Shown piece after piece: positions 4,673 through 64,000 of a stretch of DNA of 64,000 nucleotides (position 1 is its first letter; each line of letters begins with the position of its first letter). Position numbers and translations under genes: made by a program. The DNA is from a bacterium (GTDB lineage: Bacteria > Zhuqueibacterota > QNDG01 > JAGLOF01). The notes under the pieces are model-generated. The model was not told where the DNA came from. It ran no database searches and was given only the letters and a program-made list of their open reading frames with translations. The DNA is taken from contig JAFGRY010000049.1 of NCBI GenBank assembly GCA_016934955.1, forward strand, positions 61,503 through 125,502, given 5' to 3'.

Positions 4673-5998
4673 ATGGCGGCACAGCTGAAAAAACTTATTC
4701 ACAGAAGTGTTTTCTGTATTCTTTTCTGGGTGAACGGCGGCGGCGCGCAAACCGTCGCTTTGCGGCCGGAAATACAGTCCATGGTCGAGCTGGTCTCGGC
4801 TGACAGTCTGCACCGGCACGTCGAGATTCTCAGCCGGGCCGGAGGCTACGAGAGCCGGATCACGTTCACGAACGGCAACTACGCCGCAGCAGCGTATATC
4901 GCCGGCTGTTTCGAATCGATGCCCGGAATGACCCGGGTGGTGAGAGATACATTTTTTATCAATAGCGCGAACAGTCCCTGGAATGCGTATCCTATCATCA
5001 ATATTATCGGGATTAAAGAAGGTGATAGTGCTTCGGAGCAGATAATTCTCCTGGGCGGGCATTATGACAGCTCCTGCAGCCATGAATCCGATTACGGCAA
5101 TCAATGGAATACACGCAAGGCGCGGGGTGCGGACGACAATGCCTCGGGAGTTGCCGCGACGCTGGAGATTGCCCGGCTGCTCTGCGATCCTTCCAGCGGA
5201 TATCGTAATGAAGCGACACTGAAATTTATCGCGTTCGCCTCGGAGGAGAGTCATCCTGAGATCCCGAATATCAGCCATGCAGGCAGTTTATATGACGCCT
5301 ATCATATGAAAAACGGCAACGAACAGCTTTCCGCCGCTCTTATCCTGGATATGATCGCGTATAATCACGTGACGGATTATATCGAAGTGATCTCCAATGA
5401 CGCCTCCCTCGATCTGGCGAACCGGACACGCCTGGCCCGCGATCTCTATGTACCCGGGCTGACGATGAATAGCGGTCCGATAGACGTGCCGTACAGTGAT
5501 CACGAATCCTATCGGATATACGGCTTTCAATCCGCTCTTTTAATGGAGAACGACAGACCCTGGAACAACGATTCTCCCTGGTATGAGCTGAATCCCTATT
5601 ATCACTCGAGCAGCGACAGCCTCGGCACACTGAATTTTACCCTGATGAAAAAAGTGACCCAGACAGCCCTGGCCACCGTGGCGGAACTCGCGGCGCCGGA
5701 ATCTTCTCCATCCGTCACCGAGATGAATGCTGAGTCTCACGGGGAAGCATATGGTGCTTATCCCAATCCCTTCAATGCCCGGACAACGATCCGGGTTGAT
5801 CTCGAAACAGCCGCTTTTGTGAACGTTGCTATCTTCAATTCACGGGGGCAGGAGGTTGCCGCTGTGTGGGACGGGAGACTCGACAAGGGACCGCACGATC
5901 TGCCCTGGAACGCGGACCGGATGCCTGCGGGTCTGTACTTCTGCAGGATCATCTCAGGGGTCCGGAACGTCGTGTTGAAACTCGCACTTGTAAAGTAA
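4673..5998 (+). CDS. M28-family zinc aminopeptidase with T9SS C-terminal sorting domain
   Basis: Signal peptide. M28 motifs GGHYDS, DDNASGVAATLEIARLL and FIAFASEE (metal ligands). C-terminal GAYPNPFNARTTIRVDL...GLYFCRIISGVRNVVLKLALVK is a T9SS CTD. Confidence 0.85.
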   Translation: MAAQLKKLIHRSVFCILFWVNGGGAQTVALRPEIQSMVELVSADSLHRHVEILSRAGGYESRITFTNGNYAAAAYIAGCFESMPGMTRVVRDTFFINSANSPWNAYPIINIIGIKEGDSASEQIILLGGHYDSSCSHESDYGNQWNTRKARGADDNASGVAATLEIARLLCDPSSGYRNEATLKFIAFASEESHPEIPNISHAGSLYDAYHMKNGNEQLSAALILDMIAYNHVTDYIEVISNDASLDLANRTRLARDLYVPGLTMNSGPIDVPYSDHESYRIYGFQSALLMENDRPWNNDSPWYELNPYYHSSSDSLGTLNFTLMKKVTQTALATVAELAAPESSPSVTEMNAESHGEAYGAYPNPFNARTTIRVDLETAAFVNVAIFNSRGQEVAAVWDGRLDKGPHDLPWNADRMPAGLYFCRIISGVRNVVLKLALVK

Positions 5999-32943: not shown

Positions 32944-35745
32944 TTGGATTTTGCAGTAATGGGGCGGAACTGTTTGCTCACCATCAGGGAGAATGGCTAT
33001 CCGCATATGAAAGACAAAGCCACCATACTCATCGTTGAAGATGAGCCGGTCGTCGCTGCCGATATAAAATCCAGTCTTCAGTCGGCGGGATACAAGATCG
33101 TGGGTGTCGTGTCTACCGGTGAAGATGCGGTTCTTCTGGCAAAACAGAAGCGGCCCGATCTCATTCTGATGGATATTCAGCTGAAGGGCCAGCTGTCCGG
33201 TATCGACACCGTCCGCCGGATCAACACGGTGTTGGACGTTCCGGTTATCTATCTGACCGCCCATACCGACGGGCACACCATTACCGAAGCAAAGACAACC
33301 ACGCCGTTCGGTTTTATCGTCAAGCCGTTTCAGGAGATCGAACTGCAGACCTCGATCGAAATGGCCCTGCACAAATTCTCCATTGATAAACAGGTCAGGG
33401 AAAGCGAACATTTCCTTAGTTCAACCTTCCGCAGCCTCGGTGACGGGGTAATCGTTGCCGACAGGGGGTTGAAGGTCACCTATATCAATCCCTATGCGGT
33501 AATGATGACCGGATGGACCGATTCGGAAGCCGTGGGGAATGATCTCGATACCGTCTTCCTCGTGAAGGACGAATCCACCGACAAACCGATCTCCCATGTG
33601 GCGAGGACGGTGCTGAAGAAGGAACAACCCGCCGAATTCGTAAACAGAATGGTACTCGTCTCGCGCGAGGGAGGCAATCTGCCCGTTGACACCAGCATCG
33701 CTCCCGTAAAAGGCGATACCGGCGAAACCACCGGCATTGTGCTCGTGTTTCACGACACCCTTGACCGCAAGCTTACCGAGATCGCTCTCAAGGAGAGTGA
33801 GAACCGGTACCGCTCGCTGTTCGAGGAATCAAACGATGCCATTTTTATCCTCAACCGAAACGGTGATTTTATCACGGCCAATCGTGCCATGCAGCATCTG
33901 TTCGGGTTTGAGGAGAATGAACTGGTCGATTATGCCCTGGGACAGCTCTTTCAGGATGCAGCGGCCTGGCCCGACATGCAGCGGCGAATTGAAAAGAACG
34001 GTTCGGTCAGAGACTACCAGTCAAAAATGGTGACCGGCAGGAGCACTGTTATCGACTGCCTCATTACCGCCAGTCTGCGGCGTTCCGGAACCGGTGAGAT
34101 TCTCGGTTATCAGGGTATTCTTCGCGACATCACCGAGAAAAAACGATCGGAAGAGGCGCTGAAGCAGAGTGAGACCCGCTATCGGCTCCTCGCCGAAAAT
34201 ATCGTGGATATTATCTGGACCATGGATGAAGACCTGAATTTCACCTACGTGACGCCATCGGTCAGCGATATACTCGGGTATAATGCCGCCGAGTTTCTGA
34301 CACTCGATCTCGAACGGCTCTGCACGCACGAATCCTATCCCAGCGCGGCCGAATATTTTTCAACATTCGTTCCGAACAACGACGATGCCGGCGACAAACA
34401 GGTGAACATAGAGCTCGAACTCAAGAAGGCGGACGGAGGAACAGTGTGGGTCAATGTCTCCTCCTCGGTCTTTCGGGCCGAGGACGGCACCCGTGCCGGC
34501 ATTATCGGCGTCGCCCATGATATTACAAAACGGAAGATCGCTGAAAAGGAGAAGGAACTGATGCGGGAACAGTTCCTGCAAGCGCAGAAAATGGAGGCGA
34601 TCGGGATACTCGCAGGAGGAGTGGCGCACGATTTCAACAATCTGCTCACCGTAATCCAGGGTTCGACCGATCTGCTCATGATGCAGGTTCAGGAAGACGA
34701 TCCCGTATACATCGATCTCTATGAAATACATAAAGCCGCGATACGCGCAGCCGAGCTGACCAGCCAGCTGCTGCTATTCAGCCGTAAAAAATCCATGCGG
34801 AGCGTCCCCCTCAATCTCAATCGCATTGTCGAGGATCTCCTGAAGATGCTGCACCGGCTCATCGGGGAAGATGTGGGGATCATCACGCACCTGGCTGACG
34901 ATCTCTGGACCATATCGGCGGACCGCAGCAACATGGAACAGGTGATCATGAATATTGTGGTCAATGCCCGGGATGCCATGCCCGAAGGGGGAGAGGTAAC
35001 CATCACCTCGAAGAATCTCACGCTCACTGAATCGGACACGGCAGCCGCGCCCAAGGGCCCAATCCCCGGAAGTTATGTCTGCCTGACCATCGCTGACGAG
35101 GGAACCGGCATCGATGAAGCGGCCCTGAAGCACATATTTGAACCGTTTTACAGCACAAAAGGCACTGGAAAGGGAACCGGTCTCGGGCTCTCGGTCGTAT
35201 ACGGGATAGTGAAACAGCACCAGGGCTGGCTGGATGTGGAGAGTACGGTGGGAAAGGGAACGACGTTTCGTCTCTATTTTCCCGCGCTTCTGCAGGATCA
35301 GCGGCAGAAAGATGCGGGAATGGCAACGCTGGCCTCTCTTTCGGGTGACAGTGAGAATGTCCTGCTGGTCGAGGATGAGGAGGGGGTGCGTCATTTCGCG
35401 ATGCGGGCGCTCAGGTCCCACGGATACGAGGTCACCGGCGCGGCAACGGCTGAAGAGGCGCTGGATCTCTTTGGCCGTGACCCATCCGGATATCACCTGA
35501 TTATCAGTGATGTGGTGCTGCCCGGTCACAACGGCATCGAACTGGTTGAGCGAGTGTTACGGGTTCGTCCGGAAATCCCCGTACTGCTCTGCAGCGGCTA
35601 TACCGACCAGAAATCCCAGTGGACCGTCATCCAGCAGAAAGGGTATCGGTATCTTCAGAAACCTTACAGTGTGAACGAGCTGCTTCGCACCGTAAAAGAT
35701 ATATTAACGCCGTTTAAGGCATCTTTCAATGTGAAGCAATCATGA
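32944..35745 (+). CDS. Hybrid sensor histidine kinase: REC - PAS x3 - HisKA - HATPase - REC
   Basis: N-terminal receiver (ILIVEDEPVVA...DLILMDIQL). Repeated PAS blocks. H-box GVAHDFNNLLTVI. ATPase N/G boxes (VVNARDAM, GTGLGLSVVYGIV). C-terminal receiver (VLLVEDEEGVR...LIISDVVLPG). The start may be the ATG at 33007 (MKDKATILIVEDE). Confidence 0.85.
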   Translation: MDFAVMGRNCLLTIRENGYPHMKDKATILIVEDEPVVAADIKSSLQSAGYKIVGVVSTGEDAVLLAKQKRPDLILMDIQLKGQLSGIDTVRRINTVLDVPVIYLTAHTDGHTITEAKTTTPFGFIVKPFQEIELQTSIEMALHKFSIDKQVRESEHFLSSTFRSLGDGVIVADRGLKVTYINPYAVMMTGWTDSEAVGNDLDTVFLVKDESTDKPISHVARTVLKKEQPAEFVNRMVLVSREGGNLPVDTSIAPVKGDTGETTGIVLVFHDTLDRKLTEIALKESENRYRSLFEESNDAIFILNRNGDFITANRAMQHLFGFEENELVDYALGQLFQDAAAWPDMQRRIEKNGSVRDYQSKMVTGRSTVIDCLITASLRRSGTGEILGYQGILRDITEKKRSEEALKQSETRYRLLAENIVDIIWTMDEDLNFTYVTPSVSDILGYNAAEFLTLDLERLCTHESYPSAAEYFSTFVPNNDDAGDKQVNIELELKKADGGTVWVNVSSSVFRAEDGTRAGIIGVAHDITKRKIAEKEKELMREQFLQAQKMEAIGILAGGVAHDFNNLLTVIQGSTDLLMMQVQEDDPVYIDLYEIHKAAIRAAELTSQLLLFSRKKSMRSVPLNLNRIVEDLLKMLHRLIGEDVGIITHLADDLWTISADRSNMEQVIMNIVVNARDAMPEGGEVTITSKNLTLTESDTAAAPKGPIPGSYVCLTIADEGTGIDEAALKHIFEPFYSTKGTGKGTGLGLSVVYGIVKQHQGWLDVESTVGKGTTFRLYFPALLQDQRQKDAGMATLASLSGDSENVLLVEDEEGVRHFAMRALRSHGYEVTGAATAEEALDLFGRDPSGYHLIISDVVLPGHNGIELVERVLRVRPEIPVLLCSGYTDQKSQWTVIQQKGYRYLQKPYSVNELLRTVKDILTPFKASFNVKQS

Positions 35746-44926: not shown

Positions 44927-47900
44927 ATGCGCCCTGACCGGATACCGGCGCTGCTGTTCTGCCTGCTCCTTTCTGCGTCTGCGGCGAGAGCGCAGACGCC
45001 GGGGCGAGAAAGCGGGCTCACCTTCCATGTCTCGCAATGGGACAGGACAGAGGCCGCGCACGTCTGGTATCTTCCGCACCGGTTCATCATGAAGGGAACG
45101 GAGCTCCTCTATCGCAACGGGACAAAACTGACGGCCGGTGATTCCTACCGTCTCGATTACGTGAACGGGGTTGTGCTGTTCGATCGTCCGGTCCCTCCTG
45201 CGGATACGGTGACCATTTCCTATCGCTACCTGCCGCTGACCCTTCAGACATATTATCTCCTCTGGAACCGTTCATCGGCACCGGACAGCGCCGGTGTCCC
45301 CTCTCCTGGCTTTCGTGAAGGCGGCCGCGCCGCAGGAACAAACAGATTTCCGGAAACCGGCGCGCTGCAGCGAAGCGGATCGATTTTTCGCGGCATTTCT
45401 CTGGGCAGTGATCAGGGGATGCGTCTCCAGTCCGGCCTGAGGCTTCAGATTTCCGGTTCGATCGCCAGCGGAGTCGATCTCGTCGCTTCCCTCACCGATC
45501 AGAGCACACCCATTCAGCCCGAGGGAAACACCCAGACGCTGCAGGAGATCGATAAAATATTCATCAGCGTCAGTTCTCCTCATTTCAAGGCGACACTGGG
45601 AGATTTTGTGGTTTCCATGCAGAATGACGCGGTGGGATCATATGATCGAAAACTGCAGGGGGCAATGAGTGAGATCAGCGATCGTGGAAAATCACTGAAA
45701 CTGATCGCCGCCGCAAGCAAGGGCACCTATAAAAGCATGTATTTCAGCGGCGTCGAAGGAAAGCAGGGGCCCTACCAGCTGACCGGCACTGCGGGGCAGC
45801 GTGAGATTATAGTTCTCGCCGGCACGGAAAAAGTGTTCATCGACGGACAGCGTCTCGTCCGGGGAGAAGACAACGACTACACTATCGAATACGGAAGCGG
45901 GCAGATCACGTTTACCAGGAAGAAACTGATAACCGCCGACTCCCGAATCACCGTTGATTTCGAGTATTCAGACCAGAAGTTTCAAAAACAGGTCTATGGG
46001 GCCGAGGGATCGGTGCCGCTTTTCGGCGGCCGCCTGAGGGTGGGGGGGAGTCTGCTCTACGAAGCTGATGACCGGGAGAATCCCCTGGATATCGTTCTTT
46101 CCGATACCTACCGGGACGTTCTGAATAACGCAGGAGACGATCCCGACGCGGCAGTCGCCCCCGGTGCCGAGTATGTGGGAGAACGTCAGGGCAGCTATAC
46201 GAAAAAGGACAGCCTGGGCCGGACCATCTACGTCTATTCCGGCGCCGGCAGGGGGGACCACATCGTTCGTTTTTCCTATGTGGGCGAAGGCAAGGGCGAC
46301 TATATCTTTCAGGGGTACGGCATCTACCGCTTTGCCGGTGACGGAGAGGGGAGTTACGCCCCGGTGATCTATCTTCCTGTCGCCCGGTCCCATCAGGTCG
46401 CCGGACTCGTTTCAGAACTGGATCTCTCCAGACACATCAGTCTGACTGGATCCTGGGCGGTGAGCACGCGGGACAATAACACCTATTCAGACATCGGCGA
46501 CGGAGACAACAGCGGCGCTGAGTGGCAGGCCTCGCTGGCGATCGACCGTTCTCCCCTGAGACCATTCGGAAAACAGGCGGGGGTCATCGATGTGAGCGCC
46601 CGCCTCAAGCGGTCCGGCGTACGGTTCGTGCCGCTGGCCAGGGTAACCCCCGTTGAGCACGGCAGAAAATGGGGAAAAGATGAGACCGATTACCAGGGAG
46701 AATCGATTCAGGAGGTTACCGGGGCCTGGGAACCGGTGGAACAGGTGCGACTGGCCGGCGGATGGGGCGGTATGGACCAGGCCGACCGGTTTTCTTCCAG
46801 CCGCTCTTCCCTCAGCATCGATGTGAACAGGCCGCGGCTTCCCCGGATCGAATTTCTCTCCGAATCCATCGGTATGGAAAATTCGGGGACCGGAAAGGGA
46901 TACTGGAACCGGCGCAACGGAGCCATAACCGTCCCGCTATCGATACTTACCGCTTCGGTGCTCTACCAGGGCGAACATCAGCGGCAGGATCTCAGCGATA
47001 CGACCGCAGCTGGATTCAGGTTCGCTGAATACACCGGAAAAATCGCTCTTCGCAGGGGGATGTTTCTGCTCTCGCATGCCCGAACACACCGTGTCAGTGA
47101 CCGCTACGAAAACAGCACGGTTCTCAATAATGAATCGACTGCCGGCACCGGACAGACAAGTCTCACTCTTGCCGTATCGGACGCATTCTCATCATCCCTG
47201 CTGTTTACCAGCAGGACGCGTGCTTACAATGCCCCTGATACGGAAAACAACCGTTCCGCGCTCGCTGACCTCATCCTCCGATACGGGAGTCCGCGCCGGC
47301 CCCTGGGCGTGACCGGTCAGTACGCCTTTTCCAGCACTCAGGCCTCGGAGATGGTTCGCGATACGATACAGGTGGGACAAGGGCTCGGGAATTACCGTTA
47401 TGATGAGGTACTGGGAGAGATCGTGCCCGACAGCGACGGTGATCTGCTCATCCGCAGCATTCAAACCGGTGTTTTTCTCCCGGTAAATCAGCTTAAATTC
47501 AGCCTCGACTGTTCCTTCAGCGGCAGGCGGATCGGCCGGAATGGGGAAACACCGCTGCAGCGGCTGGTTTCCCGTTTGCAGTCCCAGACGGTGTTCAGGA
47601 TCGAACGCCAGGACAAGGAGAACGGATTTGCCGGTGTTAACCGCCATGCGTTTTCCACTTCAGGCGTGCGGGACAGCGCTGTCGTGTCCCAGCTGCTTTC
47701 CCTGCGGCATTACACGGAATACACTCCGGAGAACAGGGATTTTTCCCTGCGGATCGAATACAAGGGAGATCTTTCCGCGAACCATGAACTGCTGTATGCG
47801 GGACTGGTTCGGTCGTACAGCGAAGGCGCGATCCGCTGCAAAACAGCCCTTAACAGCCGTTTCGCGCTGGAGGCGCGGGCCGCCGGCCGGAGCGAAGAGA

Positions 47901-48340
47901 AAGATTACGATGATCAGGGCCGCAGTGACCGCGATATCGATGTGCTTGGAGGAGATCTGCAGGTATCGTACAGGCCCCGGCGAACCCTCGAGCTTACCGC
48001 CCGCACCAGTGTTCAGCGCGGTGCTGACCGGACCCCTGATCCCGATATCGCGGCCACCGCCTTATTTATTCAGAGCGGCATCAGCTATGAAATTCTCGAA
48101 AAAGGCAGACTGCGCGCGGACTATGAATTGGGCAAAATCACATCTGAGGAGACGAAATCGGGCCTGCCGTATGAAATGTTTCGCGGCGATCAGCCCGGGA
48201 CCACCCAGCGATGGAACATCTATCTCAGCTACCGGATAAATACACATGTAATGGCTACACTGTCGTATCGCGGCCGGAATGAACCCTGGAGAAATGCCGT
48301 ATTTCACGCGGGACAGGTGGAAGTGAGAGCCTTCTTTTAG
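44927..48340 (+). CDS. Large (1137 aa) secreted protein, probable outer-membrane beta-barrel, unknown function
   Basis: Starts 6 nt after the NHL gene. Signal peptide MRPDRIPALLFCLLLSASAARAQ. Long stretches of alternating hydrophobic/polar beta-strand pattern. C-terminus ...VEVRAFF ends in Phe-Phe like OMP barrels. Confidence 0.5.
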   Translation: MRPDRIPALLFCLLLSASAARAQTPGRESGLTFHVSQWDRTEAAHVWYLPHRFIMKGTELLYRNGTKLTAGDSYRLDYVNGVVLFDRPVPPADTVTISYRYLPLTLQTYYLLWNRSSAPDSAGVPSPGFREGGRAAGTNRFPETGALQRSGSIFRGISLGSDQGMRLQSGLRLQISGSIASGVDLVASLTDQSTPIQPEGNTQTLQEIDKIFISVSSPHFKATLGDFVVSMQNDAVGSYDRKLQGAMSEISDRGKSLKLIAAASKGTYKSMYFSGVEGKQGPYQLTGTAGQREIIVLAGTEKVFIDGQRLVRGEDNDYTIEYGSGQITFTRKKLITADSRITVDFEYSDQKFQKQVYGAEGSVPLFGGRLRVGGSLLYEADDRENPLDIVLSDTYRDVLNNAGDDPDAAVAPGAEYVGERQGSYTKKDSLGRTIYVYSGAGRGDHIVRFSYVGEGKGDYIFQGYGIYRFAGDGEGSYAPVIYLPVARSHQVAGLVSELDLSRHISLTGSWAVSTRDNNTYSDIGDGDNSGAEWQASLAIDRSPLRPFGKQAGVIDVSARLKRSGVRFVPLARVTPVEHGRKWGKDETDYQGESIQEVTGAWEPVEQVRLAGGWGGMDQADRFSSSRSSLSIDVNRPRLPRIEFLSESIGMENSGTGKGYWNRRNGAITVPLSILTASVLYQGEHQRQDLSDTTAAGFRFAEYTGKIALRRGMFLLSHARTHRVSDRYENSTVLNNESTAGTGQTSLTLAVSDAFSSSLLFTSRTRAYNAPDTENNRSALADLILRYGSPRRPLGVTGQYAFSSTQASEMVRDTIQVGQGLGNYRYDEVLGEIVPDSDGDLLIRSIQTGVFLPVNQLKFSLDCSFSGRRIGRNGETPLQRLVSRLQSQTVFRIERQDKENGFAGVNRHAFSTSGVRDSAVVSQLLSLRHYTEYTPENRDFSLRIEYKGDLSANHELLYAGLVRSYSEGAIRCKTALNSRFALEARAAGRSEEKDYDDQGRSDRDIDVLGGDLQVSYRPRRTLELTARTSVQRGADRTPDPDIAATALFIQSGISYEILEKGRLRADYELGKITSEETKSGLPYEMFRGDQPGTTQRWNIYLSYRINTHVMATLSYRGRNEPWRNAVFHAGQVEVRAFF

Positions 48341-53718: not shown

Positions 53719-55278
53719 TTATTTGGCGTAGTCAACGGAACGGTACTCACGGATTACCGTCACTTTGATCTGTCCCGGATATTCCATCTCGGCCATGATC
53801 TTCTCGGCGATGTCCGTGGCCATCTGATCGGATAGCGCGTCATCCACTTTTTCCGGCTGTACCAGCACCCGGATTTCACGGCCGGCCTGAATGGCGTATG
53901 TTTTCGACACTCCCTGGAAGGACTCGGCGATGCCTTCCAGCTTCTCGAGCCGCTTGATGTACCCTTCCAGCGTCTCACGCCGCGCTCCCGGGCGGGAGCC
54001 GGAAATGGCGTCCGCAGACTGTACCAGCGCCGAGATCGGCGAGATCATTTCCACCTCGCCGTGATGGGCGGCGATGGCATTCTGGACAATCGGCCCTTCA
54101 CCGTATTTTTTCGCCAGTTCGGCACCCAGTGCGAAATGAGTGCCTTCGGTTTCCCGGTCGACCGCCTTGCCGATATCGTGGAGCAGACCGGCCCGTTTGG
54201 CGATGACCGCATCCAGCTGAAGCTCTGCAGCCATCAATCCCGCCAGATGTGCGGACTCGATGGAGTGCTGAAGCACGTTCTGGCCGTAACTGGTACGGTA
54301 ATTAAGCTTTCCGAGCAGCTTGAGCAGTTCGGGATGAAGGCCGTGCACTCCTGTCTCCAGCATTGCCTGTTCACCCAGCTCAACGATCACTTCCTGCATT
54401 TCCTTGCGCGATTTATTGACGATTTCCTCGATACGTCCGGGATGAATGCGTCCATCGGTGATAAGCGTCTCGAGCGCACGTCTGGCGATTTCCCTGCGAT
54501 AGGGATCGAATCCGGAAAGAATCACCGCTTCAGGAGTGTCGTCAACGATGACATCAATGCCCGTGGCGTTTTCAAACGATCTGATATTGCGCCCTTCCCT
54601 GCCGATGATACGTCCCTTCATTTCCTCGCTGGGCAGGTGGACGACGGATACGGTGGTCTCCACGGAGTGGTCGGCGGCGGTCCGCTGGATGGCTGAGATC
54701 ACGATCTCCTTCGCTTCCTTGTTGGCGGTGAGCCGTGCCTGGTCCTTGATATCCTTGATGATTTGGGCCGATTCCTGTTTGGCTTTCGAGAGAAGGTTTT
54801 CCTTCAGTTCCTTGAGCGCCTCTTCATTCGACATGCCTGAAATTTTTTCCAGCCGCTGATTCTGTACCTCGATGATTTTTTCCAGCTCTTCCTGCCGGTG
54901 CTTCAGGTGCTCGGACTTGTCCCGAATCGATTGCTCACTGTTCTTTATATCTTTTTCCTTCTGGCTCAGATGCCCGAGCCTGCGGTCTATTTCAAGTTCC
55001 TTGTTCTGCAGTTTGGAGCGCTGTTTATCAATCTCCTGCCGGGTGCGCCTTGTTTCTTTTTCAAAATTCTGTTTCTGATTGTACCACTCCTCCTTGGCTT
55101 CGAGTATTTTCTGATTCTTGATAGCGAGGGACTCTTTCTCCGCTTCCGATACGATTTTTTCAGCGAGTTTCTCGGCGCTGGCGACTTTGCCCTGACCAAT
55201 ACGGGTACTCAATATCCAGCCGACAAAAAACATGATGAGACTCGTAACAATAAGCAGCACAACAGTCATGGTTTCCAT
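53719..55278 (-). CDS. rny: Ribonuclease Y
   Basis: Start at the ATG 6 nt after GGAGG ([24 protein letters not shown]-terminal TM). Coiled-coil, KH domain ([15 protein letters not shown]) and HD domain ([16 protein letters not shown]...LLHDIGK). Confidence 0.9.
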
Positions 55279-55391
55279 GTGTTTCCTCCATATAAAAATC
55301 CCGCACAGATAAAAGATGCACACCGTGAAAACGGGCGCGTCAGGAAGGGATCTTTTACCGGGCGGGAGCAGCTATACTAAATGCAGCGATA

Positions 55392-55760
55392 TTACAGCTG
55401 TCTGTCAATCAACCTGTTTAATTCTTCTACTTTGTCCTCGAGTTTTTGGCGCAATGCGTCGATTTCCTGTCTCAGGGTCTGATTATCCTGTTTCTCGCTG
55501 AACAGTTCATAGGTGATATTCAGGGAAGCGAGAATTGCGATCTTCAAGGATGAGTCGACCCGGACATTTTTATCGACTTCCCGCATCTTGCCGTCGAGAT
55601 ACTCGGCAACGGCTTTGATTTTATCTATATCGGTCTGACCGCGTACAGCGTAATCAGCGCCGTATATACGTACGTTGAGGACATTACTGTCGGACCCTGT
55701 ATGGGAGGTCCTGTTATCTGAATTAATTTTCACGGTTCGGTTTGATCCCTTCAAACCCAT
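55392..55760 (-). CDS. zapA: Cell division protein ZapA
   Basis: VRIYGADYAVRGQTDIDKIKAVAEYLDGKMREV... plus a C-terminal coiled coil, typical of ZapA. The start may be internal. Confidence 0.65.
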   Translation of the reverse strand: MGLKGSNRTVKINSDNRTSHTGSDSNVLNVRIYGADYAVRGQTDIDKIKAVAEYLDGKMREVDKNVRVDSSLKIAILASLNITYELFSEKQDNQTLRQEIDALRQKLEDKVEELNRLIDRQL

Positions 55761-55773
55761 ATGTACGATTATA

Positions 55774-56049
55774 TTATTCTTCGAATTCCTTTAGTTTATG
55801 CAGGAGCACTTCCACTTTTGAACGGATGCGATCCTGGTTTTGCTTGTAGGTTTCAATATCCCCCTGCACCCTGCTTATCTCTTCAGCTTTATTGTGCAAT
55901 TGCTGAATCGTCTGTTCTTTTTCGTTCAAAGCCGTCTGCAGGGTTTTGTTTTCCTGCCGTAATTCCTGATTTTCAACTTTCAGCTTGTTCATTTTGGAAA
56001 TCATTCTGGTGATTTTTTCTTCAAGTGCGTCAAGGCTCTGATGATCCAT
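55774..56049 (-). CDS. ZapB-like coiled-coil cell division protein
   Basis: 91-aa all-coiled-coil protein (LEEKITRMISKMNKLKVENQELRQENKTLQ...) immediately upstream of zapA, resembling ZapB/DUF904. Confidence 0.55.
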   Translation of the reverse strand: MDHQSLDALEEKITRMISKMNKLKVENQELRQENKTLQTALNEKEQTIQQLHNKAEEISRVQGDIETYKQNQDRIRSKVEVLLHKLKEFEE

Positions 56050-60095: not shown

Positions 60096-60605
60096 TTATT
60101 TGGGAACAAAAAAGGCCACCAGACTGCGTCCTTCCCGGGAAGGCATCCCTTCCAGTTTGGCGATCTCTTCAAGTTCCTGCTGTACTCTTTTCAATACTGC
60201 TTCTCCAAGTTCGGGATGCGCTATCTGCCGCCCCCGGAACAGTATACGAATTTTTAAATGATTTCCGGCACTGATGAATTTCTTGGCATGGTTCATCTTG
60301 AACTCGATGTCGTGCTCATCAATGGTCGGACGCAAACGAATCTCTTTTATATGGATAACGTGCTGTTTCTTTTTGCTTTCTTTATCTTTCTTGCTCTGCT
60401 GGTACTTGAATTTGCCGTAATTCATGATCCGGCATACAGGAGGACTGGCATTGGCGGCGATCTCCACAAGGTCAAGATCTTTCTTTTCTGCTTCCTCGAG
60501 TGCCTTGTCGAGACTGACCACCCCTATCTGAGAACCATCGACATCGATCAGCCGCACCTCTTTGGCGACTATTTCTTCGTTGATTCTAACGTCATCCTTT
60601 TTAAT
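60096..60605 (-). CDS. infC: Translation initiation factor IF-3 with non-canonical ATT start codon
   Basis: IKKDDVRINEEIVAKEVRLIDVDGSQIGVVS is in frame upstream of the track's GTG (60557). ATT (minus strand, 60603-60605) lies 7 nt after AAGGAGGG. AUU-initiated infC is the classical autoregulatory arrangement. Confidence 0.85.
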   Translation of the reverse strand: MKKDDVRINEEIVAKEVRLIDVDGSQIGVVSLDKALEEAEKKDLDLVEIAANASPPVCRIMNYGKFKYQQSKKDKESKKKQHVIHIKEIRLRPTIDEHDIEFKMNHAKKFISAGNHLKIRILFRGRQIAHPELGEAVLKRVQQELEEIAKLEGMPSREGRSLVAFFVPK

Positions 60606-62520
60606 TGTTATCCCTCCTTACAATAAGTTCAAGAATCCAGTCCAGGAACGCAGCCGTTTCCATGGACCCGAGATTTCCCTGTTTTCGTCTGCGCACGGAT
60701 ACCGTTCCCCCCTCGACCTCCTCGTCACCTATGACGCAGACAAAGGGTATTTTCTTTTTTTCCGCTTCCCGTATTTTAAAACCAACCTTTTCATTGCGGT
60801 CATCGAGCCGGCAGCGTATTCCCGAGCCGGTCAGCTGCTGCATCACGTTCAGCGCATACTCATGGTGGCGGTCGGTGATCGGCATCAGCAGGCACTGTAC
60901 CGGGGCCAGCCATATCGGAAAGGCGCCGCCGTAATGCTCAACGAGAATGCCGAAAAACCGTTCCACCGATCCGAGAATCGCCCGGTGGATCATCACCGGC
61001 ACATGCCGTTCGCCATCGGCGCCCACGTATTCCAGTTCGAACCGTTCCGGCATGGAGAAATCGACCTGGATCGTGCCGCACTGCCAGGACCTGCCCACGG
61101 AATCCTCGATATGAAAATCGATCTTGGGCCCGTAGAAGGCACCGTCGCCGGCATTGACCTGGAAAGAGACTCCTTTACGGTTGAGGGCGTTTGCCAGAGC
61201 GTTTTCCGCCCGCTCCCACATATCGTCACTGCCGATGGATTTCGCGGGTCTCGTCGACATTTCGAGACTGATAGAGGTGAATCCGAATGTGGCATACACC
61301 TCACTCACAAGATCGATCAGCTTGACTATCTCGTCTTCCATCTGATCGGGCGTGCAGAACACGTGCGCATCATCCTGGGTGAAATAGCGGACACGAAACA
61401 GACCGTGGAGCACTCCGGATTTTTCATGACGGTGAACGCCCCCCATTTCCGAGAGCTTGAGCGGAAGATCCCGGTACGAGTGCAGGGAGTTTTTATAAAT
61501 GAGCAGACTGCCCGGACAGTTCATCGGTTTCACTGCGTAGGTCTGCTCGTCAATAGATGTAAAATACATGTTTTCTTTATAATTATCCCAATGACCGCTT
61601 CGATGCCAGAGACGTTCGTTGAGAATCATCGGAGTCTTCACTTCTCCGTACCCGTGTCTGATCAGAGTGGTCCGCATATAGTCCATGATGCCGTTGTAGA
61701 TGACCATGCCGTCCGGGTGCCAGAAGGGAAATCCCGGGCCTTCCTGCTGAAAACTGAAGAGGTCAAGCTCTTTCCCCAGTTTCCGGTGGTCGCGTTTCTT
61801 CGCCTCTTCCAGTGCGTGCAGATACTGCTTCAGCTGCTTTGCATCGGGGTAGGCGGTGCCGTAGATTCGCTGCATTACCGGATTGTTTTCATTGCCGTGC
61901 CAGTAGGCTCCCGCCACACTGAGCAGGGTGATGTGCTGAACGACTCCGGTGGAAAAAACATGAGGTCCGCGGCAGAGGTCGGTGAACAGACCGTCGTTAC
62001 TGAATGTGGAAATGGTCTCGTCCCCGAGATCCCGAATCAGTTCCAGCTTGAATGATTCATGCAGATTCGTAAAGAGAGCCTCAGCCTCTTCCCTGGGCAG
62101 TACGGTTTTTGTAAAGGGAATATCCCGTTCGATGATCTCCCGCATTTTTTCTTCAATGCGCGGCAGATCATCGTTGGAGAGTTTGTCGGGCATGGAGAAA
62201 TCGTAGTAAAACCCGTTGGAAATGGCGGGACCGATTCCGAGCTGAACATCCCCGTACAGTTCCTTGACAGCGGCTGCCATAATATGAGACGCACTGTGCC
62301 AGAAGACCTCCCTCCCCTCGGGATCATCAAACGTCACGATCTCGAGATCGGTGTCTTCCGACAGCCTTTCATATAAACCAGCCAGCTTTCCGTTGATTTT
62401 TACTGCAACTGCCTTCTTGTGGACTTTGGGAAGTTCGGTTCTCAGTAAATCATGTATAACTATGTTGGAATCAGTGGCTATCTCATTGTTTTTATTTACT
62501 GTAACTTTTATTTTTTTCAC
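60601..62520 (-). CDS. thrS: Threonine--tRNA ligase
   Basis: GTG start. TGS, editing and class II core domains (FWHPDGMVIYN, GFPFW). 639 aa. Confidence 0.95.
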   Translation of the reverse strand: MKKIKVTVNKNNEIATDSNIVIHDLLRTELPKVHKKAVAVKINGKLAGLYERLSEDTDLEIVTFDDPEGREVFWHSASHIMAAAVKELYGDVQLGIGPAISNGFYYDFSMPDKLSNDDLPRIEEKMREIIERDIPFTKTVLPREEAEALFTNLHESFKLELIRDLGDETISTFSNDGLFTDLCRGPHVFSTGVVQHITLLSVAGAYWHGNENNPVMQRIYGTAYPDAKQLKQYLHALEEAKKRDHRKLGKELDLFSFQQEGPGFPFWHPDGMVIYNGIMDYMRTTLIRHGYGEVKTPMILNERLWHRSGHWDNYKENMYFTSIDEQTYAVKPMNCPGSLLIYKNSLHSYRDLPLKLSEMGGVHRHEKSGVLHGLFRVRYFTQDDAHVFCTPDQMEDEIVKLIDLVSEVYATFGFTSISLEMSTRPAKSIGSDDMWERAENALANALNRKGVSFQVNAGDGAFYGPKIDFHIEDSVGRSWQCGTIQVDFSMPERFELEYVGADGERHVPVMIHRAILGSVERFFGILVEHYGGAFPIWLAPVQCLLMPITDRHHEYALNVMQQLTGSGIRCRLDDRNEKVGFKIREAEKKKIPFVCVIGDEEVEGGTVSVRRRKQGNLGSMETAAFLDWILELIVRRDNN

Positions 62521-62572
62521 AACAGCTCGAATTTATTTAAGTGGCCCGAGTACCGAAAAAAAAAAGGATTTG

Positions 62573-62646
62573 TGGGCGATACTGGAATTGAACCAGTGAC
62601 CTCTTGCATGTCAAGCAAGCACTCTAACCATCTGAGCTAATCGCCC
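62573..62646 (-). tRNA. tRNA-Val (anticodon GAC), CCA not encoded
   Basis: Minus-strand sequence GGGCGATTAGCTCAGATGGTTAGAGTGCTTGCTTGACATGCAAGAGGTCACTGGTTCAATTCCAGTATCGCCCA folds as a cloverleaf with a 7-bp acceptor stem GGGCGAT/ATCGCCC, anticodon stem CTTGC/GCAAG and loop TTGACAT, and a T-arm GGTTCAATTCC. It is followed by T10. Confidence 0.85.
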
Positions 62647-62750: not shown

Positions 62751-64000
62751 CTAGGCGGTCTGCTCCTTGAGCTCACGCAGCCTGTCGGCGATATATCCTG
62801 TCTCTCCCCGGCCGTCACTCTGGTTGTCGATGAGGTCGATGACCATTTCCATTGCCAGGGTAACCGAATCGAGCACGGTTTTGGAGATTTTTAATTCCCG
62901 CGCCTGTACGGCGGTGATAATGTCGTCGATCGCCTCCAGCAGCGCCTTTATTTCATCGAATCCGAACATCTGGGCCGAAGCCAGCAGGAGCTTGCAGGCC
63001 TGTTTGGCATCGATGAGCGCCTTCCTGTTTTCCCCGTCCTGCCTCAGCACATGCAGCGCCCGATCGAATTTTTTCAGGTCGCCGGCAGCTTCCTCCTTGA
63101 GTATTTTATAGAAAACCGGTGATATCTGATCCTGATATCCCTGTCTCTTCTTGGGGGCGGTAATTTCCGTACCGGTGGCCATGATCGAGTCTTTGATATC
63201 GAAAATACTGTTCCGGGCTGCAGCCGCCTCCTCCGCGGCCGACGTGTCCGCGAATATCACCGCTCCCGCGGATTCCATCTGAACCCGTTTCGGGGTCTCC
63301 GGATCCTTCAGACCGCTGGCGATGATGATGACCTTCAGATGCTGTCGCAGATGTTTTTTAATGTCCACGCCCCAGATGATGCGGGCATGAGGATCGAGCA
63401 TCCGGGCAATACTTGAGATGACGTTACGCGCTTCGCTCAATGTCAGTCCGGCCCCCCCGGTCACATGCACGATGGCGCTTTGAGCGCCCCGTATATTCTG
63501 ATCCATCATGGGGTGGGAAACCGCCCTGCGGACCGCTTCCTCGACCCGGTTCTCCGAATCGCTTTCCCCAATGCCGATCACCGTATTGGGTCCGTCCCTG
63601 AGCACCATGGAAATATCGGCAAAATCGAGGTTGATGACACCGGTTTCCAGAATCAGGCTTGACATACTGACGACGATATTCTGAAGAATTCTGTCTCCCT
63701 CCTGAAACGCATCGCCGAGGGCCAGGTCGGTATACAGCTCTGCCAGCCGGTCGTTTCTGAGAACAACCAGTGTGTCAACTTTCCTGCGGATTTTATCGAG
63801 ACCGATCTGGGCGTTCTCCCAGCGGATCAGCCCCTCTTCTGAAAAAGGCATGGTGACCACCGCGACCGTCAGAATGCCGAGATCTCTGGCAATATGGCTG
63901 ATAACGGGGATGGCGCCGGTTCCGGTGCCGCCGCCGAGTCCGCAGGTCATGATGAGCAGGTCGGTATCGGCAATGAGCGACTTGATCGAATCCCGGTTCT
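62751..64000 (-). CDS. ftsZ: FtsZ/tubulin-family GTPase (5' end outside the window) with atypical ~175-aa structured C-terminal extension
   Basis: GLGGGTGTGAIPVISHIAR (tubulin signature), TMPFSEEG, T7 loop GVINLDFADISMVL, GESDSENRVEEAVRRAVSHPMM...VHVTGGAGLTLSEA all match FtsZ. The C-terminus lacks the usual FtsA-binding peptide and ends ...IADRLRELKEQTA. The reading frame continues past coordinate 64000. Confidence 0.75.
   Translation of the reverse strand, partial: NRDSIKSLIADTDLLIMTCGLGGGTGTGAIPVISHIARDLGILTVAVVTMPFSEEGLIRWENAQIGLDKIRRKVDTLVVLRNDRLAELYTDLALGDAFQEGDRILQNIVVSMSSLILETGVINLDFADISMVLRDGPNTVIGIGESDSENRVEEAVRRAVSHPMMDQNIRGAQSAIVHVTGGAGLTLSEARNVISSIARMLDPHARIIWGVDIKKHLRQHLKVIIIASGLKDPETPKRVQMESAGAVIFADTSAAEEAAAARNSIFDIKDSIMATGTEITAPKKRQGYQDQISPVFYKILKEEAAGDLKKFDRALHVLRQDGENRKALIDAKQACKLLLASAQMFGFDEIKALLEAIDDIITAVQARELKISKTVLDSVTLAMEMVIDLIDNQSDGRGETGYIADRLRELKEQTA

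Follow-up and report, generated by a model that had tools for sequence, protein, structure and literature searches.

We analysed a 64,000-nucleotide (nt) stretch of bacterial DNA, hereafter called the window (GenBank assembly GCA_016934955.1, contig JAFGRY010000049.1, positions 61,503 to 125,502 of the forward strand), at whose far end lies a gene for an FtsZ-family GTPase with a long C-terminal extension. The window contains the 3' 1250 nt of this gene, which we designate ftsZ-pseudoHPt (62751..64000, minus strand): the open reading frame (ORF) ends with a TAG stop codon at 62751-62753 and is still open at the window end at position 64000. Residues 96-510 of the 510-residue product, that is, the 415 C-terminal residues, are encoded within the window, and the 5' 285 nt lie past its end. 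The full-length protein of 510 amino acids (aa), P0091, is identical at all 415 residues, and contig L031 agrees with the end of the window in 1378 of 1378 bases and therefore extends the window by 1748 nt. P0091 and this base-identical contig, together with 25 related loci, served as the source of upstream sequence. An exact look-up of the thrS product of the window gave no match, and a look-up of rplT led only to a 7-kb contig of a near-identical strain that ends short of the ftsZ gene. The database copies of the protein are all annotated merely as 'cell division protein FtsZ'.

The part of the FtsZ core that is present in the window (residues 96-330; 63294..64000, minus strand) consists of the C-terminal part of the GTPase domain and the FtsZ_C domain. 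Both were recognized by Pfam in the window fragment (Tubulin, PF00091, E 2e-22; FtsZ_C, PF12327, E 4e-27), and on a full-length relative PF00091 reached an E-value of 6e-46. The G-box GGGTGTG is encoded at 63915-63935 and the T7 loop NLDFAD at 63615-63632; in the T7 loop, N218, D220 and D223 are invariant in an alignment of 115 related sequences of at least 495 aa (101 members of the main family and 14 divergent ones); the search with the family core listed 120 clusters at 90% identity. Full-length P0091 passed the TIGR00065 ftsZ equivalog model with 354.9 bits (cut-off 295.2), the window fragment alone scoring 242.1 bits. These results bear out the assignment to the FtsZ family made in a preliminary description of this DNA, and judged by its sequence the protein is a true FtsZ with a complete polymerising-GTPase module. 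The same description had noted that the bacterial peptide that binds FtsA and ZipA is missing, which also holds: the protein ends ...ADRLRELKEQTA, with no DIPxFLR-type peptide at its C-terminus. A (D/E)-I-P-x-F-L-R peptide was likewise not seen in the family tails that were listed or inspected, an inspection that did not extend to a motif scan over all 115 sequences.

Several comparisons support the view that the core is of the archaeal FtsZ1 type and not of the bacterial type. When the core of the family member from locus L006 was used as the query, the first matches outside the family were P0122 and P0125 (51-53% identity to this core), which have archaeal gene neighbourhoods with secE-spt5/NGN, L37ae, Rpb4, prefoldin and aEF1A. 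Against the PDB, the family member from L006 gave 345 bits with Methanocaldococcus jannaschii FtsZ1 and 249 bits or less with bacterial FtsZ, and the CetZ structures 4B45 and 4B46 obtained 45-47 bits as compared to 210-345 bits for FtsZ. A BLAST search with the core of the window protein alone gave 293-294 bits and 49-50% identity for archaeal FtsZ1, as compared to 232 bits and 40-44% identity for the best FtsZ with a bacterial C-terminal peptide. A neighbour-joining tree, built from top-hit representatives over 313 columns of the core, set the main family together with its divergent relatives and with archaeal FtsZ1 apart from 45 FtsZ proteins with the bacterial peptide in 100 of 100 bootstraps. 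The host context is bacterial, with infC, rplT, zapA, genes of a type IX secretion system (T9SS) and sigma-54 activators in the window, and the neighbourhood of the gene is not the archaeal one. Proteins with two FtsZ cores in tandem, which occurred among the top representatives, were rejected as relatives, being bacterial-type duplications unrelated to the tailed family; P0128 (840 aa), which is encoded outside the window, has two complete bacterial-type FtsZ cores and ends with a canonical NIPEFLRR.

The preliminary description had seen behind the core a helical extension of about 175 residues that takes the place of a disordered linker. In an AlphaFold2 model of the full-length protein, based on 115 homologues (mean predicted local distance difference test score, pLDDT, 83.7), the FtsZ core is confidently predicted up to about residue 330 (pLDDT above 90) and a five-helix domain is confidently predicted at residues 389-509. 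Residues 337-386 between them have pLDDT values below 50, with the exception of a short helix at residues 363-368. The folded helical domain thus stands, the replacement of the linker does not, and a coiled coil, which had been suggested for checking together with disorder, was not borne out. Column conservation among the 101 main-family members subdivides the intervening region. A variable, disordered first linker (residues 331-358, about 28 aa; 63210..63293; 25-40 aa long in the family, conservation 0.24) is followed by the near-invariant peptide SIFDIKDSIM (residues 359-368; 63180..63209) and by a second, short linker of low pLDDT (residues 369-388; 63120..63179; conservation 0.53). The family form of the peptide is S-I-F-D-I-K-E/D-S-I-L/M (conservation 0.88), and its central columns are nearly constant across the complete alignment (F361 in 103, D362 in 106, I363 in 109 and K364 in 106 of the 115 sequences). 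Since a variable linker is followed by a conserved peptide, the usual layout of FtsZ is kept and a folded domain has been added behind it. The tail matches the core in conservation (0.67-0.88 versus 0.72) and, to judge from these values, is under strong purifying selection. In archaeal FtsZ the C-terminal SepF-binding motif is a near-invariant GID (PMC8178401), and at the site of this motif P0122 and P0125 have LGIEF(L/I). The peptide IFDIK occupies an equivalent position and has the hydrophobic-acidic-hydrophobic core in common with archaeal GID/GIE, the glycine not being shared. This leads us to suggest, and no more than suggest, that SIFDIKDSIM could be a homologous descendant of the archaeal 'GID' motif of the C-terminal domain.

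The domain behind the second linker (residues 389-510, about 120 aa; 62754..63119, minus strand) resembles the P1 domain of the chemotaxis kinase CheA, a five-helix bundle of the histidine phosphotransfer (HPt) type. A profile of the family tails matched CheA P1 of Thermotoga maritima in the PDB (2LD6 and 1TQG, E 1e-9); the tail shows the P1-type helix A signature, and the HMMER alignment with CheA P1 runs without gaps across helix B, where it is anchored by an (M/F)GF motif. In an AlphaFold2 model of the tail alone the domain has pLDDT values above 90, and the best 10 matches of this model in a Foldseek search of the PDB were all CheA P1 domains (root-mean-square deviation 1.3-2.8 Å). The target-normalised template-modelling scores were 0.76-0.89 for nine of these ten and 0.49 for 2lp4, which is a longer P1-CheY/P2 chain, and the top match was the complex of Rhodobacter sphaeroides CheA3-P1 with CheY6 (3KYI). 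Apart from Tubulin and FtsZ_C, the only Pfam signal of the window protein was that of the Hpt model (PF01627), which gave 16.5 bits with the window tail, below its gathering score of 24.6 (E 0.01 on the tail alone); a precomputed PF01627 match is present in a few relatives, and NCBIfam aligned the last 120 or so residues to the N-terminus of a CheA model.

At the position of the phospho-accepting His45 of T. maritima CheA P1, the HMMER alignment places Lys431 of the window protein (codon 62991..62993). This column holds Lys in 96 of the 115 sequences, with His not among its five commonest residues, and the divergent subfamily likewise has no conserved His; the adjacent Cys430 is conserved in 104 of 115. 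Profile, alignment and model together therefore identify the tail as a predicted HPt domain of the CheA-P1 type that has a conserved Lys in place of the phospho-accepting His, that is, a pseudo-HPt domain. With this replacement, phosphate acceptance and relay of the canonical kind would be impossible. An active HPt domain was ruled out for want of a conserved His, and a coiled coil was ruled out by the P1 fold. Helices A and B, which form the receiver-contacting face in CheA P1, have conservation values of 0.76 and 0.80. The most conserved part of the tail (0.88) is a family-specific DGRGETGY loop between helices D and E (62793..62816), which has no counterpart in CheA P1 and is missing from the divergent subfamily. 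Word-index searches in which only the tail was used, both as one sequence and in the form of a profile, yielded nothing other than fragments of the family, and thus neither another architecture nor a CheA donor. At one locus, L001 (JGI 3300056973), a single in-frame TAA lies between the FtsZ core (352 aa) and the tail (5047-5085); the frame is otherwise continuous and the tail is called as a separate 170-aa gene with the JGI label CheA. This TAA could be a sequencing error, the sign of a fresh pseudogene or a genuine split of the gene.

The upstream sequence, whose inspection the preliminary description had proposed with a view to ftsA and ftsQ, contains neither: the gene just upstream encodes a single-domain response regulator. 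On L031 this 140-aa protein, consisting of one receiver (REC) domain, is encoded at 1057-1479 and overlaps by 14 nt with ftsZ, which starts at 1466. The receiver retains the acidic pocket (DD), the phospho-accepting Asp and the conserved T and K residues, and is most like receivers of the NtrC and Spo0F types. At position 1000, 41 nt 5' of the REC start, the sequence TGGTATGGTATTTGCT is a textbook match to a -24/-12 sigma-54 promoter. The pattern TGGYAY-N5-TTGC occurs 26 times in 27 loci (811,656 strand-bases), in all cases singly and at the site before the REC gene, and never elsewhere. Further upstream, L031 contains the C-terminal end only of a cut ORF, which ends at 843 and where relatives have an NtrC-like gene, and a terminator identified by folding (14-bp hairpin followed by a U-run, -20.9 kcal/mol, z -5.8). 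Scans for sigma-70 promoters and for terminators around the gene and in L031 were uninformative. Based on this arrangement, the REC and FtsZ genes are predicted to form a two-gene unit behind a terminator and a putative sigma-54 promoter.

The order of genes is maintained in more than 20 loci. It begins with gcvPB, followed by genes for a REC-GGDEF protein, a HAMP-PAS-HisKA-HATPase kinase, a REC-PAS-PAS-HisKA-HATPase kinase and a REC-Sigma54_activat-HTH_8 protein, and then by the sigma-54 promoter, REC, FtsZ-pseudoHPt, a variable FAD oxidase, thrS, infC, rpmI, rplT, pheS, pheT, a zapB-like gene, zapA and rny. The REC gene lies directly upstream of ftsZ in every main-family locus, the adjacent REC-Sigma54_activat-HTH_8 gene is a candidate for the cognate enhancer-binding protein, and the block of two-component genes and ftsZ appears to have been inserted between gcvPB and thrS. 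The view that the gene is not part of a division and cell wall (dcw) cluster is thereby confirmed by the two-component genes upstream, on L031 and in these loci, and by the absence of dcw genes from the window.

The labelled relatives all belong to candidate division KSB1, equivalent to Candidatus Zhuqueibacterota, in the Fibrobacteres-Chlorobi-Bacteroidetes (FCB) group. A genome scan found 23 loci in metagenome-assembled genomes (MAGs), with 24 confirmed matches, one of which was unrelated (22% identity, in a Cyclobacteriaceae MAG), and the fusion is a single ORF at each MAG locus at which the whole gene lies on the contig. The gene for sigma-54, rpoN, is present in 41 of 44 KSB1 MAGs. The divergent proteins form a sister subfamily with 35-41% overall identity and lengths of 547-594 aa, and their loci share with the main family the module of kinases and NtrC-like protein as well as the one sigma-54 site (L032:5141-13017; L033:5281-13280; L038, from GCA_002084535.1). 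Their operon is longer and encodes a REC-PATAN protein (PatA_N/DUF4388), a ParA/MinD/MipZ-like ATPase, sometimes a REC protein, an SLT lytic transglycosylase and the tailed FtsZ, which is flanked by two proteins without a Pfam match, one of about 600 aa before it and one of about 450 aa after it. Many members of the sister subfamily (P0109-P0140) end in a conserved amphipathic peptide, such as AVKYIKQLF, EVMEYLDDLF or AVKFVNDLL, that resembles the membrane-targeting helices of MinD and FtsA; the window protein has no such peptide. The sister operon looks like a self-contained inducible FtsZ machine, of which the version in the window looks like a reduced form.

Whether the gene encodes a divergent primary FtsZ or a paralogue had been left undecided in the preliminary description, and the archaeal-type core, the two-component locus and the copy numbers of ftsZ in KSB1 now favour the paralogue. 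In the KEGG Orthology (KO) table of a survey of KSB1, ftsZ (K03531) is listed with two copies in 27, one copy in 16 and no copy in 1 of 44 MAGs, and ftsA and ftsQ are mostly single-copy (PMC9012183). GCA_002084535.1, a source of sister-subfamily tailed FtsZ, has two ftsZ copies in this table; the supplements of the iMeta article on Zhuqueibacterota contain no ftsZ data. Because of these copy numbers, the archaeal-type core, the missing FtsA-binding peptide and the predicted sigma-54 control, we consider it very likely that the protein is an accessory FtsZ and not the primary one.

The reading that we prefer, and to which we give about an even chance in its entirety, is that of an accessory FtsZ that is induced through sigma-54, is controlled by signals and uses its pseudo-HPt tail to dock the co-transcribed receiver. 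The PAS histidine kinases would phosphorylate the NtrC-like activator, upon which the receiver-FtsZ pair would be transcribed. The receiver made together with FtsZ would then dock on the pseudo-HPt domain without phosphotransfer, comparable to CheY on CheA P1 or Spo0F on Spo0B, and its phosphorylation state would determine how the filaments assemble, bundle or are placed. A contact with the acyl-phosphate might be made by the Lys that has taken the place of the His. Ordinary division would be carried out by a housekeeping bacterial FtsZ encoded elsewhere, together with ftsA and ftsQ. A more far-reaching proposal, which we make tentatively and regard as rather doubtful, is that in bacteria an FtsZ cytoskeleton of the archaeal type is gated directly by a phospho-receiver, which docks on a degenerate HPt domain that forms part of the filament protein itself; two-component signalling would in this case have a post-translational output at the cytoskeleton. 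Separate from the housekeeping divisome, the cell would then possess a second FtsZ machine that can be induced for division or for remodelling of the envelope and that in the sister lineages would have its own ParA/MinD-like ATPase, PATAN-receiver protein and lytic transglycosylase.

A number of points weigh against the preferred reading. The sigma-54 promoter was predicted from a match to the consensus, and other promoters are possible; docking of the receiver on the tail is argued from gene adjacency and domain logic only. The evidence for a second ftsZ comes from KO counts of KSB1 MAGs and not from the source genome of the window, these counts do not give the nature of the second copy, and the link between a carrier and the KO table was made for the sister subfamily and for no main-family carrier. 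The neighbour-joining tree is a simple one in which the main family, archaeal FtsZ1 and the divergent subfamily are not ordered relative to one another, so that it fixes neither the direction nor the number of transfers. Finally, zapA (55392-55760, minus strand; Pfam ZapA E 7e-20) and the zapB-like gene (55774-56049, minus strand; Pfam ZapB E 2e-7), both scored on the L006 orthologues and located in the window by cluster match, lie 5 kb downstream of ftsZ and are also compatible with a role in division. Linkage of pheST and zapA is common in bacteria; for this reason, and since the two-component/ftsZ block appears to be inserted, we set the two genes aside as evidence for a division role. That ZapA, which binds FtsZ, is encoded nearby may have a meaning or may be a coincidence of synteny.

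The alternative that survives best also holds the protein to be an induced accessory FtsZ, with a tail that does not bind the receiver and instead mediates self-association or bundling, or binds another partner, for instance a SepF-like anchor, via the DGRGETGY loop or the SIFDIKESIL peptide. It can draw on the fact that the most conserved elements are this family-specific loop and the linker peptide rather than the classical HPt residues, that the peptide stands at the site of the archaeal SepF-binding 'GID' motif, and that the divergent subfamily combines a P1-like fold with different neighbouring receivers and an extra terminal amphipathic peptide. We nevertheless consider it improbable, because the receiver directly precedes ftsZ in every main-family locus, with the 14-nt overlap in the genome of the window, because helices A and B are strongly conserved, and because no gene for SepF or another partner was found in the loci.

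Less probable is that the protein is the sole or primary division FtsZ of its host, a lineage-specific replacement whose tail and transcriptional control would couple division to environmental signals. It passes the FtsZ equivalog threshold with all GTPase and T7 residues intact, it is conserved in every related locus found, zapA and the zapB-like gene are near, there is no second ftsZ in the 64-kb window, and 16 of the 44 KSB1 MAGs have one K03531 only. Such single-copy counts may, however, stem from incomplete MAGs, and 27 of the 44 have two ftsZ genes along with ftsA and ftsQ. FtsA requires the bacterial-type C-terminal peptide of FtsZ, which is missing here, the core is archaeal in type, and a gene located behind a terminator and a sigma-54 promoter would normally be silent without an activated enhancer-binding protein. 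These points make a primary role unlikely.

That the domain performs phosphotransfer through a non-canonical residue (His411, Cys430, or His434 in some members), which would make FtsZ an intermediate of a phosphorelay, is very unlikely. A P1 fold with neighbouring kinases and receivers does amount to the parts list of a phosphorelay, and Cys430 and His411 are conserved in 104 and 80 of the 115 sequences, respectively. Against this, the canonical site is Lys in most sequences, His411 and position 434 are variable, the divergent subfamily also has no conserved His, and Cys430 aligns with a Leu beside the CheA His and is assumed from helix periodicity to be buried. The membrane tether proposed in the preliminary description is the least credible of the alternatives: the missing FtsA/ZipA-binding peptide would call for another anchor and divergent members do end in a MinD/FtsA-type amphipathic peptide (AVKYIKQLF), but the window protein stops right after helix E (...LRELKEQTA) with no terminal amphipathic, hydrophobic or transmembrane segment, and AlphaFold2 and Foldseek agree with high confidence on a soluble CheA-P1-like helical bundle.

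Directly downstream of ftsZ lie a tRNA gene and thrS, as had been described. The tRNA-Val(GAC) gene (62572..62646, minus strand; ARAGORN; Rfam RF00005, 70.9 bits) is located between the ftsZ stop codon and thrS, a placement checked in the window only, and is the sole tRNA or RNA family that Rfam and ARAGORN detected in the 64 kb. The ORF list places thrS at 60601..62520 (minus strand), where it starts the block thrS-infC-rpmI-rplT-pheS-pheT, which has synteny clusters in common with at least 20 related loci and was annotated through Pfam in relatives. After pheT, the order zapB-like gene, zapA, rny is kept in all related loci; rny, which encodes RNase Y, occupies 53719-55323 (minus strand).

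The remainder of the window is FCB-like in content, with T9SS sorting domains, PorV, glycoside hydrolases (GH) and sulfatases. Positions 1-27000 (plus strand) encode a TonB-dependent receptor, a PorV-like protein, proteins with T9SS sorting tails, GH106, GH95 and GH78 enzymes and two sulfatases. The GH106, GH95 and GH78 enzymes are hydrolases of the rhamnosidase or fucosidase type, and the region is one of polysaccharide degradation whose content suggests the use of sulfated rhamnose- or fucose-rich glycans. A 933-aa hybrid sensor with a REC domain, three PAS domains, HisKA, HATPase and a second REC stretch (32944-35745, plus strand) is unlinked to the ftsZ cluster and groups by similarity with the kinases that are encoded before ftsZ in relatives. 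A 1137-aa protein encoded at 44927-48340 (plus strand), beside an NHL-repeat protein, has DUF2460 as its sole Pfam signal (E 6e-8, 32.8 bits versus a cut-off of 30.4), no single stretch of the match being significant alone.

Compared with known systems, the core is closest to archaeal FtsZ1 (M. jannaschii, PDB 1FSZ), with 47-50% identity over about 310-330 residues and one single-residue gap in an alignment of some 328 residues, and the two share the succession of core, disordered linker and short acidic-hydrophobic peptide. The window protein differs in that it is bacterial (FCB, KSB1) and not encoded beside secE-nusG/spt5, in that its peptide is an internal IFDIK rather than GID and is followed by a CheA-P1-like domain, and in that its gene lies in a two-component cluster with a predicted sigma-54 promoter. 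With the bacterial FtsZ of dcw clusters (Escherichia coli, Bacillus subtilis, Staphylococcus aureus) it shares the fold, the G-box, the T7 loop and the TIGR00065 pass, but it obtains at most 232-249 bits with these proteins as compared to 293-345 bits with archaeal FtsZ1, and it has a receiver and an NtrC-like gene upstream instead of ftsA and ftsQ neighbours and no DIPxFLR peptide. CheA P1 (1TQG, 2LD6, 3KYI) resembles the tail in its five-helix fold, its (M/F)GF motif and its genomic link to receiver domains, whereas the tail has Lys for His, is attached to a cytoskeletal GTPase instead of a kinase, has the extra DGRGETGY loop and remains under the gathering score of Pfam Hpt.

In Caulobacter, the pseudo-kinase DivL reads the phosphorylation state of the single-domain receiver DivK. 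The DivL-DivK pair is similar in combining a degenerate, His-replaced module with a single-domain receiver in a setting of cell cycle or morphogenesis; docking but no transfer is the logic proposed here. DivL differs in being a DHp/CA kinase homologue with Tyr for His and no cytoskeletal fusion, and no homology is implied. The regulation of FtsZ is known to take place via dedicated binding proteins and via transcription. Other extra members of the tubulin superfamily, which occur beside the housekeeping FtsZ and for which specialised roles have been proposed, are FtsZl1 and FtsZl2 (Makarova and Koonin 2010, PMC2875224), archaeal CetZ and FtsZm of magnetotactic bacteria, from which the window protein differs in being by sequence a canonical FtsZ (TIGR00065, 355 bits); the direct comparison of scores covered CetZ. 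Literature searches found no HPt fusion and no sigma-54/two-component operon for FtsZl, CetZ or FtsZm, and in the full-text literature we found nothing relevant on a fusion of FtsZ to an HPt or histidine-phosphotransfer domain or on FtsZ in KSB1.

What is new in the present locus is that a true FtsZ of a bacterium combines a core of the archaeal type with a fused, degenerate signalling domain and has a dedicated circuit of predicted two-component/sigma-54 control; as far as full-text searches show, no filament protein that carries a signalling-domain receptor of its own has been described. Binding of the receiver to the pseudo-HPt domain, if it takes place, would connect environmental sensing to cytoskeletal assembly in a direct and simple way. 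An archaeal FtsZ1-type protein would then work beside a bacterial divisome, and a dead phosphotransfer domain would have found a new use. The receiver and FtsZ would constitute a compact system, maintained across more than 115 sequence clusters from an uncultured phylum and testable in vitro with two purified proteins.

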